Shown here: piece by piece, positions 4,113 to 13,426 of the stretch
How positions within the stretch are numbered: the stretch's first letter is position 1
Layout of the letters: every line of letters begins with the position of its first letter
Virus record (IMG/VR): IMGVR_UViG_2547132281_000005
Source: a virus
Lineage: Duplodnaviria > Heunggongvirae > Uroviricota > Caudoviricetes
Strand: one strand, 5' to 3'
DNA length: 17,319 bases
The notes under the pieces: model-generated
What the model saw: only the letters and a program-made list of their open reading frames with translations
What the model was told of the DNA's origin: nothing
Database searches by the model: none
Translations under genes and position numbers: made by a program

Positions 4113-4268
4113 TTACTCCTCAGGTTCGTAAGCTGTGAAGACAGCGACCTCCGTCTGGCCGGTTCGGATTCGTACCTCGCAGAGGTCTTTCCTCGTTACC
4201 AGTGCCGTCACTATGACGGTTAAACAGATGACGATCAGGGCGATTAGCATCGCCTTTTGCTGCTTCAT
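4113..4268 (-). CDS. hok: Hok/Gef family type I toxin (51 aa)
   Basis: MKQQKAMLIALIVICLTVIVTALVTRKDLCEVRIRTGQTEVAVFTAYEPEE closely matches the Hok/Gef family as I recall it. ATG at 4268 preceded by GGAGA; stop TAA at 4113-4115. Confidence 0.85.
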   Translation of the reverse strand: MKQQKAMLIALIVICLTVIVTALVTRKDLCEVRIRTGQTEVAVFTAYEPEE

Positions 4269-4325
4269 AGCCTGCTTCTCCTTGCCTTTCGGCACGTAAG
4301 AGGCTAACCTACGTGTGTAGAGCAT
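4113..4325 (-). CDS. mok: Mok (modulator of killing) reading frame, in-frame N-terminal extension of hok
   Basis: 70-aa ORF sharing the stop and frame with hok, as in chromosomal mokC/hokC. Confidence 0.55.
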   Translation of the reverse strand: MLYTRRLASYVPKGKEKQAMKQQKAMLIALIVICLTVIVTALVTRKDLCEVRIRTGQTEVAVFTAYEPEE

Positions 4326-4370
4326 AGGTATGGCCTCAGATTAATGTTAAGCGTCTTGCCGGACGCGTAA
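4295..4370 (+). ncRNA. sok: Putative Sok-like antisense RNA (position inferred, boundaries approximate)
   Basis: Inferred from hok/sok organisation: the antisense RNA should overlap the mok initiation region. A plus-strand hairpin GCGTC-ttgccg-GACGC lies at 4351-4366 but lacks a clean U-run, so the end is uncertain. Confidence 0.25.
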
Positions 4371-4443
4371 TGTTAACTGGGGCTTTTCTCTATCTGCCTT
4401 TGGTGTTGATGCCCGAGGCAGATAGCCTCAAGCACCCGCAGCA

Positions 4444-11191: not shown

Positions 11192-11207
11192 ATTGAGTTT
11201 TCTCAAT
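11192..11207. promoter_or_regulatory. Palindromic operator candidate in the divergent repressor/cro promoter region
   Basis: Perfect 16-bp palindrome ATTGAGTTTTCTCAAT; the same TTGAGTTTTCTCA core recurs twice at 11729-11778. Confidence 0.45.
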
Positions 11208-11664
11208 GCTAATCACTCAAGGAATCTCAAGTCAAGGATTATTAAGATATCTAAATATGAACGAGAAAACTTTAGGTCAACGCATTAGAGAAAGACGTAA
11301 GCAGGTAGGCTTAAGTCAAAACGGTTTAAGCAAAGCTGCTGGCGTATCTGGCTCATCAATTTCATTATGGGAAAGTGACCATACAGCCCCGCGCGGGCAA
11401 AATTTGCATCGCCTCGCCGAGGTATTGCAATGTTCACCAACCTGGATACTGTTTGGCGACGAGGACAAAACACCAGCTCCCCCTGTTTCACTCGATAGTA
11501 CCCTAGACTTATCGGAAGATGAGTTAGAGATGCTGCGTTTGTATCGCGCACTTCCTAAATCAGAGCAACAAGCACAACTCAGCGAACTCCGCGCCCGCGT
11601 TGAGAATTTTAATCGCCTGTTCACCGAGCTATTAGAGGCTCGCAAACGCAACAAGCATCAATAA
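11206..11664 (+). CDS. cI/C2-like prophage repressor, N-terminal HTH (XRE family), no S24 peptidase domain
   Basis: From the internal ATG 11257 the protein starts MNEKTLGQRIRERRKQVGLSQNGLSKAAGVSGSSISLWE, like the P22 C2 / RacR-type N-terminus as I recall it. Either 11206 or 11257 may be the start; both lack a strong SD (possibly leaderless). Confidence 0.8.
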   Translation: MLITQGISSQGLLRYLNMNEKTLGQRIRERRKQVGLSQNGLSKAAGVSGSSISLWESDHTAPRGQNLHRLAEVLQCSPTWILFGDEDKTPAPPVSLDSTLDLSEDELEMLRLYRALPKSEQQAQLSELRARVENFNRLFTELLEARKRNKHQ

Positions 11665-12171: not shown

Positions 12172-12390
12172 ATGCAGAAACGAGAACCCGTCATCATCGC
12201 GCCAGACTATACCGATGATGAACTTTATGAGTGGATGCACCAGAAAATTAATGCAGCGCAGGATCTGAAATGGGCCAATGAAGCCAGGGCTAAGCAGGCT
12301 GAAAATCTGTCCGCTCTGGAGCAGGATATCACTAATCTGGAAAAAGCAGCGGCATTAAGCATTGCCAGAATGATTACATACCCGCGTTAA
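12172..12390 (+). CDS. Hypothetical 72-aa protein
   Basis: ATG 12172 with GAGGAA 5 nt upstream; stop TAA 12388-12390. Confidence 0.6.
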   Translation: MQKREPVIIAPDYTDDELYEWMHQKINAAQDLKWANEARAKQAENLSALEQDITNLEKAAALSIARMITYPR

Positions 12391-12393
12391 TAG

Positions 12394-12791
12394 CTAACCA
12401 ACGAAGCTAAGGTTGGTAATTAAGGAGTTCTCCACGGATGAGGTGGAGTGCGTGCGCCGGACACGGGTGAGCATCCGGCACAGACAGTTTACTGAAAGGA
12501 TATTTCCCTGAAAGGTCAGACCATAACGCGAAAGCGCACGGCGAGGTAGCTGGTTCATAGATAGCCTGTCGTTAAATTTTCGTCGACCGTGCGCTTCCGG
12601 TTGTGGCAATCCGCGAAATGGCGCGGCGGTGAGTATGGCGGGGTTATTCCTTCCCCGTTGAGGACACCGGGTTGTCAGGTTGACCATACGCTTAAGTGAC
12701 AACCCCGCTGCAACGCCCTCTGTTATCAATTTTCTGGTGACGTTTGGCGGTATCAGTTTTACTCCGTGACTGCTCTGCCGCCCTTTTTAAA
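12394..12791 (+). ncRNA. GC-rich structured non-coding region (candidate ncRNA or structured leader), strand assumed from the flanking operon
   Basis: No plausible ORF on either strand. Consecutive perfect stems: ACCAAC/GTTGGT (12397-12417), CTCCAC/GTGGAG (12430-12448), GCCGGA/TCCGGC (12456-12479), CGC-GAAA-GCG (12527-12536), GCGCACGG/CCGTGCGC (12534-12594), CCGCG/CGCGG (12611-12626), CGGGG/CCCCG (12639-12657), GGGTTGTCA/TGACAACCC (12669-12705), and GGCGG...CCGCC followed by CTTTTT (12746-12788). Confidence 0.3.
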
Positions 12792-12795
12792 GTGA

Positions 12796-12937
12796 ATTTT
12801 GTGATGCGGTGAATGCGGCTGAGCGCACGCGGAACAGTTAAAACCAAAAACAGTGTTATGGGTGGATTCTCTGTATCCGGCGTTAATTGTTAACTGGTTA
12901 ACGTCACCTGGAAGCACCAGGCACCGCATCACAAAAT
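12796..12937. repeat. Perfect 16-bp inverted repeat pair bracketing about 110 bp
   Basis: ATTTTGTGATGCGGTG (12796-12811) and its exact reverse complement CACCGCATCACAAAAT (12922-12937); interior carries GTTAAC-tg-GTTAAC palindromic sites. Confidence 0.5.
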
Positions 12938-12957
12938 TCATTGTTGAGGACGCGATA

Positions 12958-13146
12958 ATGGAAACGTTATTACCAAACGTTAATACGTCTGAAGGTTGTT
13001 TTGAAATTGGTGTCACTATCAGTAACCCTGTATTTACTGAAGATGCCATTAACAAGAGAAAACACGAACGGGAGCTATTAAATAAAATATGCATTCTTTC
13101 AATGTTGGCCCGTTTACGTCCGATACAAAAAGGATGCTGGCAATGA
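12958..13146 (+). CDS. Hypothetical 62-aa protein
   Basis: ATG 12958 with GAGGA 7 nt upstream; its stop TGA (13144-13146) overlaps the next ATG in an ATGA arrangement. Confidence 0.45.
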   Translation: METLLPNVNTSEGCFEIGVTISNPVFTEDAINKRKHERELLNKICILSMLARLRPIQKGCWQ

Positions 13147-13334
13147 ATACAGCATTTGCACTTGTTCTGACAGTTTTTCTTGTTTCCGGAGAGCCAGTTG
13201 ATATTGCAGTCAGTGTTCACAGGACAATGCAGGAGTGTGTGACTGCAGCAACCGAACAGAAAATTCCCGGTAACTGTTACCCGGTCGATAAAGTTATTCA
13301 CCAGGATAATAACGAAATCCCGGCAGGTCTTTAA
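13143..13334 (+). CDS. Small exported protein candidate (63 aa, N-terminal hydrophobic signal-like segment, two Cys)
   Basis: ATG 13143 with AAAGGA 8 nt upstream; MNTAFALVLTVFLVSGEPVDIAVSVHRTMQECVTAATEQKIPGNCYPVDKVIHQDNNEIPAGL. Confidence 0.5.
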   Translation: MNTAFALVLTVFLVSGEPVDIAVSVHRTMQECVTAATEQKIPGNCYPVDKVIHQDNNEIPAGL

Positions 13335-13426
13335 AACAGTTCCGTAATAAACATCCGATTTCATTCTTATATGCCAGCAATGGCAGGGATTTGTTCACCC
13401 TTAAATCTGTAATGAGGTAAAACAAA

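Follow-up and report, generated by a model that had tools for sequence, protein, structure and literature searches.

The small RNA DicF and the protein DicB are textbook prophage-encoded inhibitors of cell division. Between their genes, in a stretch of 17,319 nucleotides (nt) from a virus of the Caudoviricetes (IMG/VR record IMGVR_UViG_2547132281_000005; the whole stretch is referred to as the window, and position 1 is its first letter), lies a long inverted repeat at positions 12793-12940, which is the subject of the present analysis. As RNA the repeat forms a helix that is genuine and under selection. This helix, P1, closes a pseudoknotted domain of ~128 nt with five helices (P1, P2, P3, P5 and P6) arranged round one junction. 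On the grounds of sequence and covariance-model matches the domain is placed in the STnc100/PasD superfamily of phage small RNAs, and its closing stem very probably contains a long-known site of RNase III.

The processing of the DicF and DicB transcripts is still being worked out (J Bacteriol 2023). Cleavage by RNase III downstream of DicF has been known since 1990; according to two later papers that cite Faubladier 1990, the full-length dicBF mRNA is converted by RNase III to a DicF of 72 nt, and a form of 53 nt arises by Rho-independent termination (PMC5069750, PMC9438474). A second described system is found in the Rac prophage of Escherichia coli K-12, where the small RNA KilS (b4833), annotated at 1418405-1418502, ends at the U-tract of a DicF-like terminator and has its own transcription start and Hfq interactome. 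In RNase III stalks, such as rRNA precursor stems and the early mRNA sites of phage T7, the sequences on either side of a structured RNA form a long duplex, from which that RNA is released out of a longer transcript. STnc100, EcOnc27 (downstream of stx2B) and PasD1/2, finally, are expressed, Hfq-associated RNAs (PMC5331693; PMC8550237), one EcOnc27-type STnc100 example being situated 75 nt downstream of stx2B, and Rfam annotation assigns 11 STnc100 copies to E. coli O157:H7 EDL933 (PMC5331693). Among CsrA-bound chimera partners in EPEC, PasD2 ranks first in abundance (bioRxiv 10.64898/2026.08.12.744399). A literature search revealed no paper that links the RNase III site downstream of DicF with STnc100; one paper that contains both names has them in a table of non-coding RNAs only, and dicB, DicF and kilR go unmentioned in a 2026 survey of the Pas and STnc100 small RNAs. 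The RNase III cleavage is thus known, and STnc100 is a curated Rfam family; what is new is that the spacer belongs to the STnc100 superfamily, as an embedded variant with a long stem, and that the fold includes a pseudoknot.

The window belongs to a lambdoid prophage of the Qin type and represents its immunity and early-left region, as follows from the presence of DicF upstream of the repeat (Rfam RF00039, 76.7 bits, 12732-12783, + strand; aligned to K-12 dicF b1574, 1649382-1649434), of dicB downstream of it (12958-13146; NCBIfam NF049927, 132.7 bits), of a ydfD-like open reading frame (ORF) and a RecE-like exonuclease 3' of dicB, and of the DicA repressor gene (11206-11661). Positions 12700-12960 are 98.9% identical to Qin of E. 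coli K-12, and 4641 of 5426 complete E. coli genomes contain related sequence; in the K-12 RefSeq record no feature is annotated in the dicF-dicB interval. This is the locus of the K-12 dicBF operon (ydfABC-dicF-dicB-ydfD), where the 72-nt DicF end falls by arithmetic within the 5' arm of the repeat; K-12 differs in having two G.U pairs where the window has a perfect duplex, and the two citing papers give the length of the product but no description of the stem or its contents. The repeat fills the stretch from the terminator of DicF to the ribosome-binding site of dicB. An earlier note on this DNA, made from the letters alone, had correctly placed it after a structured region and before the ribosome-binding site of the next gene (the dicB Shine-Dalgarno sequence is at 12946-12950), but had not recognised the structured region as DicF. 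The stem-loop of the DicF terminator is beyond the limits of a simple terminator scan, which therefore misses it in the window; the terminator is identified from Rfam and the literature.

The 16-mer ATTTTGTGATGCGGTG at 12796-12811, to which the earlier note drew attention, indeed recurs as its exact reverse complement at 12922-12937, with 110 nt between the two. A repeat search shows that the perfect repeat is longer, comprising 19 base pairs (bp; TGAATTTTGTGATGCGGTG, 12793-12811 / 12922-12940), and that the arms extend imperfectly to 28 nt (12793-12820 / 12913-12940, 86% complementary); they are 126 bp apart, centre to centre. A chance origin can be dismissed, as had been supposed: with up to two mismatches allowed the expectation for the 16-mer is 0.02, none of 200 dinucleotide shuffles gave two or more matches, and a search for further copies in the 17.3-kb window, also with up to two mismatches, returned the two sites alone.

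Folding of the + strand RNA of positions 12785-12950 yields -66.7 kcal/mol (z = -6.4 relative to shuffles). As RNA the arms form 21 consecutive pairs, consisting of 19 Watson-Crick pairs followed by one G.U and one A-U pair, and in the minimum free energy (MFE) fold the helix comprises 27 pairs with one bulge, including weak pairs into the U-tract of the DicF terminator. In K-12 Qin the arms (UGAAUUUUGUGAUGUGGUG / CACUGCAUCACAAAAUUCA; in full TGAATTTTGTGATGTGGTG and CACTGCATCACAAAATTCA) have two adjacent G-C pairs replaced by G.U, which pair in the + strand RNA only. The K-12 arms therefore keep the + strand helix but lose the symmetry of the DNA, which identifies the repeat as an element of RNA and not of DNA. 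The comparison of related loci that had been proposed as a check gives the same picture. In 14 distinct variants with long arms, taken from contigs of phages and genomes, the pairing is kept: the arms differ by G.U wobbles and by compensatory double changes (A-U to G-C and U-A to C-G in locus L069, U-A to G-C in L062), and only three of the variants have a single mismatch. All copies examined are oriented in the same direction as the flanking DicF, KilS, tRNA or downstream genes. Of the possibilities considered in the earlier note, the long-range RNA stem is thereby borne out.

The elements of the domain and its direct surroundings are as follows.

12732-12784, + strand: DicF small RNA, 53-nt form with the terminator hairpin and the first U of the U-tract (Rfam RF00039)
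12785-12790, + strand: DicF terminator U-tract UUUUAA, pairing weakly with 12944-12949 (UUGAGG) past the bulged G12943 (MFE fold)
12791-12803, + strand: 5' strand of the P1 extension, AGUGAAUUUUGUG, paired with 12930-12942 (ungapped helix of 21 pairs; folds)
12804-12811, + strand: 5' strand of the P1 core, AUGCGGUG, paired with 12922-12929 (P1 columns covary, 102 sequences)
12812-12814, + strand: junction AAU, within the near-invariant GGUGAAU motif (nearly invariant alignment columns)
12815-12830, + strand: P2 hairpin GCGGC-UGAGC-GC(A)CGC, with 3 bp, bulged A12827, 2 bp and loop 12820-12824 (helix 99.4% paired)
12831-12833, + strand: 5' strand of P3, GGA, paired with 12876-12878; P3 encloses the variable centre (covariation analysis)
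12835-12841, + strand: 5' strand of the pseudoknot, CAGUUAA, complementary to 12890-12896 (UUAACUG) in the P5 loop (cognate complementarity)
12842-12875, + strand: central segment, variable in sequence and length between copies (alignments)
12876-12878, + strand: 3' strand of P3, UCC (covariation analysis)
12879-12905, + strand: P5 hairpin, stem 12879-12886 / 12898-12905, with the 11-nt loop UUGUUAACUGG at 12887-12897 (covariation)
12907-12921, + strand: P6 hairpin CCUGG-AAGCA-CCAGG (12907-12911 / 12917-12921), abutting the 3' strand of P1 (helix 99.8% paired)
12922-12929, + strand: 3' strand of the P1 core, CACCGCAU (covariation; P1 length survey)
12930-12942, + strand: 3' strand of the P1 extension, CACAAAAUUCAUU, with the predicted partner cut of RNase III near 12931/12932 (folds, arm variants)
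12946-12960, + strand: dicB Shine-Dalgarno sequence GAGGA (12946-12950) and start codon (12958-12960) (sequence; NF049927)

The architecture is carried by covariation in a set of 102 distinct sequences, for which columns with the partners slid by 1-3 positions served as controls. Standard pairs are formed in 95.5% of the pair cells, compared to 38-45% in the slid controls; 21 of the 27 pairs have changed on both sides, compared to 9-13, and the covariation score is 0.495, compared to 0.05-0.12. The observed values were not attained in any shuffle. Fitting of the alignment to the model favours the structure, but the margin is nevertheless large. All six pairs analysed in P5 have changes on both sides, with CUGUAA/UUGCAG in Rac replacing CGUUAA/UUAACG; P3 is GGC/GCC in Rac; and the middle pair of P6 is U-A in 18 sequences and G-C in 80. 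In addition, judged by complementarity across the family, the P5 loop forms a covarying pseudoknot with the strand just inside P3. The two strands change together (CUGGUG/CACCGG, CCAGUC/GACUGG, CUAGAC/GUCUAG, AAGGUUG/CAACCUU, AGACUGACA/UGUCAGUCU); 14 or more complementary combinations occur in the family, and the mean run of complementarity is 5.48 nt for cognate strands versus 3.96 ± 0.10 nt for non-cognate strands (maximum 4.27 in 200 permutations).

This architecture also accounts for the interior features that the earlier note had singled out. GTTAAC-tg-GTTAAC is present at 12889-12902 and ATGCGGTGAATGCGG at 12804-12818. The GTTAAC copies are, however, not palindromic protein sites: the first (12889-12894) belongs to the P5 loop and the pseudoknot strand and the second (12897-12902) almost wholly to the 3' strand of the P5 stem, which explains the motif. 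ATGCGGTGAATGCGG corresponds to the P1 core, the junction and the start of P2, and the internal repetition in that string is not a feature of the family. A tRNA-like reading of the fold was considered and rejected. ARAGORN detects no tRNA or tmRNA in the window, no Rfam hit of the tRNA clan appears at E-values up to 10, and no CCA-like 3' tail follows P1 at the copies examined; the likeness to class II tRNA is limited to the order of the helices, i.e., a closing stem and four arms of which the last abuts the 3' strand.

At a permissive threshold, positions 12795-12935 (+ strand) match the Rfam model RF02076 of STnc100 with 38.4 bits (E = 3.8e-7, model positions 21-154 of 206), and the arms of the repeat align to the closing stem of the model. 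Distant searches reveal the bracketed segment also between sieB and kilR in Rac and before a rha-like gene of another prophage; it is further present in the tRNA-ban operon of the P1-like phages P7 and D6 and of a P1-like plasmid, and in Klebsiella, Actinobacillus and Aeromonas phages, and related segments occur downstream of stx. In the alignment of these copies the ends are conserved and the centre is variable. Through the 3' motif CACCNGGARGCACCNGGCACC, which the copies have in common, at least 120 viral contigs with 95 distinct elements were obtained, and a covariance model built from 32 representatives detects 189 copies in 150 sources (137 and 52 in two locus sets), among them exactly one, full-length copy in the window (12802-12931, 87 bits). 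The closing stem, hairpins and junction/loop motifs that form the core structure of STnc100 are all present in the window copy, itself a member of the seed alignment. With the Rfam model, canonical copies at other loci score 52-132 bits, whereas window-like copies (L001, L002, L091, L011, L048, L005) are not called, and a long-stem branch of the superfamily is thus missed by current Rfam-based annotation.

Like STnc100, EcOnc27 and PasD, the window domain is prophage-encoded and shows the P1, P2, P3, P5, P6 layout; with STnc100 it shares the core motifs GGUGAAU and CACCNGGARGCACCNGGCACC and the pseudoknot, and intermediate forms link both types. It differs from RF02076 STnc100 in P2, where three of the five pairs are C-G in canonical copies and flipped to G-C in the window type, in the length of P1 (21-27 bp versus 6-10 bp), in its location within an early-operon mRNA and in the absence of a promoter, linker and terminator of its own.

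The length of P1 is linked to the genomic context: embedded copies have long stems and free-standing copies have short ones. In free-standing members P1 comprises 6-10 bp, whereas it reaches 21-30 bp in embedded copies, which a DicF/KilS terminator precedes and dicB, kilR or rha follows. Of the 29 distinct copies that form 15 pairs or more, about 27 have a DicF/KilS-type terminator immediately upstream and an ORF (dicB, kilR or rha-like) immediately downstream, as have all but one of the copies with 21 pairs or more. The exceptions are L128 (Citrobacter), with 21 pairs and no upstream terminator, and L034, with 16 pairs and a downstream terminator; none of the other long-helix copies is followed by a terminator. 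The ~105 copies with a short P1 (4-13 pairs) are free-standing. For about half of the free-standing copies a Rho-independent terminator is detectable no further than 90 nt from P1, separated from it by a linker of ~25-35 nt, and in many free-standing copies -35/-10-like hexamers, recognised by eye, end 5-8 nt before P1, so that they look like ordinary small-RNA genes. The window copy is not organised in this way, since it abuts the DicF U-tract at its 5' side and the dicB Shine-Dalgarno sequence at its 3' side, and the promoter scan shows no promoter-like site for it on the + strand.

A close parallel is seen in Rac, where KilS is immediately followed by an STnc100-like domain (stem of 10 + 12 bp with a 1-nt bulge) and then by kilR (b1352). 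In both prophages a small RNA with its terminator is followed by a long-stem domain and the ribosome-binding site of an FtsZ-targeting inhibitor, and the two domains are ~78% identical. Rac differs in the bulge of the stem, in the centre of the domain, in the separate transcription start of KilS and in KilR, which is unrelated to DicB. Given that DicB and KilR are unrelated division blockers, the arrangement that the two prophages share is tied to the RNA module, not to the gene that follows it. The Rac element is unannotated (L007, NC_000913.3 1417900-1419200; 362-492 of the locus, - strand, 22-bp bulged stem).

DicF starts at 12732 (K-12 1649382), so that the 3' end of the 72-nt form, 71 nt further on at 12803, is located inside the 5' arm, 11 nt into the perfect duplex (UGAAUUUUGUG^AUGCGGUG). 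P1 is the sole long duplex that the repeat search and the folds reveal within ~20 nt downstream of the DicF terminator. Substrates of RNase III contain about two helical turns (roughly at least 20 bp) of largely uninterrupted double-stranded RNA, a length that P1 attains with its 21 consecutive pairs, or 27 with one bulge. After a cut at ~12803 the remainder of P1 (12804-12811 / 12922-12929) would measure 8 bp, which is the canonical length in the family. RNase III leaves a 2-nt 3' overhang, and the partner cut would therefore be expected near 12931/12932. The P1 helix thus very probably contains the long-known RNase III site. In an RNA-sequencing screen of an rnc mutant, a site at K-12 1649470 (dicF-dicB, approximately position 12820 of the window) has 26 reads in the mutant and none in the wild type, which lends weak support to this assignment; the same table lists a kilR-sieB site of Rac, at 1418510, which is situated at the 5' end of KilS, outside the domain (PMC5371410).

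The reading favoured here, which is considered probable, is that the helix formed upon read-through is the P1 stem of an STnc100-type domain, lengthened and cut by RNase III into three products. Part of the dicBF operon transcripts would read through the DicF terminator, and the arms would then pair to form a continuous helix of 21 bp (27 bp with the weak pairs) that closes the ~128-nt domain. Both here and before kilR in Rac, P1 would be lengthened to a size that is cut by RNase III, in a domain devoid of a promoter or terminator of its own, and the enzyme would cut the extension after ~12803 and near 12931/12932. The expected products are an upstream RNA ending in the 72-nt DicF, an excised ~128-nt domain with a canonical 8-bp P1, and a dicB-ydfD mRNA whose new 5' end is ~27 nt upstream of the AUG. 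As in the RNase III stalks mentioned above, a staggered cut would release the enclosed RNA and part the neighbouring cistrons, with the difference that the enclosed RNA would here be a phage small-RNA domain. The sequences themselves show the helix, its covariation and its strand, the architecture of the domain and the link of stem length to context, and the RNase III-dependent 72-nt DicF is taken from the literature; the placing of that cut in this stem, the second cut, the release and stability of the domain RNA and any effect on the expression of dicB are inferred.

Several observations weigh against this proposal. The position of the cut is derived by length arithmetic (53 versus 72 nt) from secondary sources, and the gel and S1 sizes of 1990 may be a few nt off. 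In a study of the operon from 2023, RNase III is described solely for the 5' terminus of a DicF species of 190 nt, and nothing is said of the 72-nt form (PMC10448788); the rnc table is very noisy, as it contains sites with low counts by the hundred and resolves positions to hundreds of nt (PMC5371410). No excised RNA of ~128 nt has been reported from the dicF-dicB spacer, in an operon that is repressed under standard conditions, and RNA from this spacer is absent from the Hfq RIL-seq lists that were searched. As to the family assignment, the window copy scores below the Rfam gathering cut-off (38.4 versus 47 bits), with no hit at the gathering threshold, and was included in the seed alignment of the covariance model that detects it. 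The finding that upstream ydfA transcripts are undetectable in an rnc mutant (PMC10448788) is consistent with a stabilisation of the upstream RNA by processing, but gives no position for the site.

A second inverted repeat is present upstream of DicF (12529-12541 / 12587-12599; 13 nt, 92% complementary), and the 5' end of the 190-nt DicF falls by arithmetic (12784 - 189 = 12595) within its 3' arm; this repeat may be the other RNase III stem of the operon. The idea of a degenerate second domain at 12590-12727, by which the 190-nt DicF precursor would consist of a domain, a seed and a terminator, was dropped because neither an Rfam E-value scan of 12380-12800 nor the covariance model, with its one hit in the window, gave support.

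Other explanations of the repeat deserve consideration. The helix might serve mainly to control the translation or stability of dicB in cis, as a structure in the 5' untranslated region by which the ribosome-binding site of a toxic gene is masked or made accessible, with RNase III being incidental or acting as the trigger. In favour of such a role, the MFE helix continues past the bulge (12785-12790 / 12944-12949) and covers the GAGG of the dicB Shine-Dalgarno sequence, the embedded copies precede the toxic division inhibitors dicB and kilR, and the Rac element is contained in the 5' untranslated region of kilR, downstream of the KilS start site. The covering pairs are weak, however, being G.U in three of six cases, and they are not conserved among Rac-type copies, where they are missing and the Shine-Dalgarno sequence is located ~12 nt further from the helix; for this reason its occlusion was rejected as the main mechanism. 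Moreover, the downstream genes vary (dicB, kilR, rha-like and others) and the same domain occurs free-standing without a downstream ORF, so that control in cis is judged to be an unlikely main function. That the functional RNA would be a - strand transcript, antisense to the dicF-dicB spacer, scarcely deserves credence. The - strand folds strongly (-58.3 kcal/mol, z = -6.95), as is expected of any inverted repeat, and one weak promoter-like match inside the element on that strand is no more than expected by chance. The G.U pairs, of which K-12 has two in the arms and which occur at one P5 pair in 59 of the 102 sequences, would become A.C mismatches on the - strand, and every copy is co-oriented with the flanking DicF/KilS, tRNA or downstream genes.

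The two remaining interpretations, both raised in the earlier note, treat the repeat as DNA and find no support. A miniature mobile insertion, similar to a miniature inverted-repeat transposable element, that landed between dicF and dicB would explain a perfect 19-bp terminal inverted repeat round a short non-coding segment, the presence of related segments in unrelated contexts (Qin, Rac, the tRNA region of P1/P7/D6, downstream of stx) and the median of two copies in E. coli genomes that have any. Yet the flanks (TTTAAAG / TTGTTGA) show no target-site duplication, the supposed terminal repeat varies from 6 to 30 bp with the context and covaries, G.U pairs included, as an RNA stem of one strand, and the interior is a conserved structured RNA. 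Free-standing copies resemble ordinary small genes, the number of copies per genome follows that of the lambdoid prophages, without dispersed amplification, and an empty site, in which the DicF terminator is joined directly to the dicB leader, is not found among the loci examined. An origin by insertion is accordingly very improbable. Even less can be said for a pair of DNA sites bound by DicA, DicC or another prophage regulator, with looping of the DNA between them, despite the identity of the inverted sequences, the regulatory-looking position upstream of dicB and the presence of the DicA gene in the window. An operator pair would keep its symmetry as DNA regardless of the pairing rules of RNA, whereas this symmetry is lost in K-12, the very strain in which the regulation of dicB was worked out, and in other variants, and the variation, with G.U pairs kept and compensatory doubles elsewhere, obeys the rules of RNA. 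In addition, the same stem is found in Rac and in P1-like phages, whose repressors differ, and the published control by DicA is exerted at dicBp, far upstream (PMC10448788).

The helix is of moderate interest, owing to the domain it encloses. With RNase III acting on P1 as proposed, the cut would be placed in a defined stem that is conserved by covariation and that encloses a member of a very abundant family of phage small RNAs. The proposal predicts an excised RNA of ~128 nt, a 5' end of the dicB mRNA near 12932 and the same arrangement upstream of kilR in Rac. The covarying pseudoknot is an addition to the structure of the family, and such complexity of fold is unusual for a simple base-pairing small RNA. 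A more far-reaching possibility, which is put forward tentatively, is that the STnc100/PasD core is a compact pseudoknotted five-helix domain with a role of its own, for example in protein binding. The core would then be more than a passive scaffold for a base-pairing seed, and it would be deployed in two ways, as free-standing Hfq-type genes (often in tandem and downstream of phage tRNA clusters) and as a cassette excised by RNase III from early operons. Derepressed Qin and Rac would in that case each yield a third, unrecognised RNA beside DicF/KilS and DicB/KilR.

Some further features of the family were observed. STnc100-type domains are often arranged in tandem, 2-6 at a time, and the centres and pseudoknot sequences differ between the copies of an array, as in L028 (3148-3743), L018 (2324-3352), L085 (4378-5461 and 8378-8517), L029 (371-990) and L041 (1724-2343). 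In about a dozen of 60 loci the domains start ~100-400 nt, mostly ~100 nt, downstream of a co-oriented cluster of phage tRNA genes (Met/Ile-CAT, Arg-TCG, Arg-TCT). In P1-like phage-plasmids the tRNA-ban operon, which C1 controls, contains one strong copy and at most two weak ones between its tRNA genes; unannotated examples are found in plasmid pEP91B-2 (L002; 1382-1483, 2998-3124 and 3605-3721), in which a Tad2 anti-Thoeris gene is located 0.7 kb downstream, and in phage P7 (L004; 2998-3119). In L091 (5950-6075, - strand), an AlpA-associated island, a window-like domain with a short P1 is followed by the KilS/DicF-like sequence UGCUGUGUGUAGUCCUGGCGG and a terminator, and the same arrangement of a domain and a KilS/DicF-like sequence is seen in L023, L063, L008, L010, L021, L045 and L113. 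Judged by sequence, units of the L091 type look like one small RNA composed of a domain, a DicF-like seed and a terminator, which hints that DicF-type RNAs and STnc100-type domains may be exchangeable modules.

Elsewhere in the window, Rfam matches are found to IS009 RNA (225 bits, 2062-2260, - strand) and to the sok antitoxin RNA of a hok/sok-type module (115 bits, 4263-4437, - strand). An ORF of 201 amino acids that runs antisense to the element, dicB and ydfD (12759-13364, - strand) is probably spurious. The first codons of dicB contain the direct repeats AAACGTTATTAC (12962-12973) and AAACGTTAATAC (12975-12986), in which AAACGU is complementary to ACGUUU of the 5' seed region of DicF (12735-12745); the MFE fold of 12732-12975 pairs the two, a match of 6 nt that could be due to chance.

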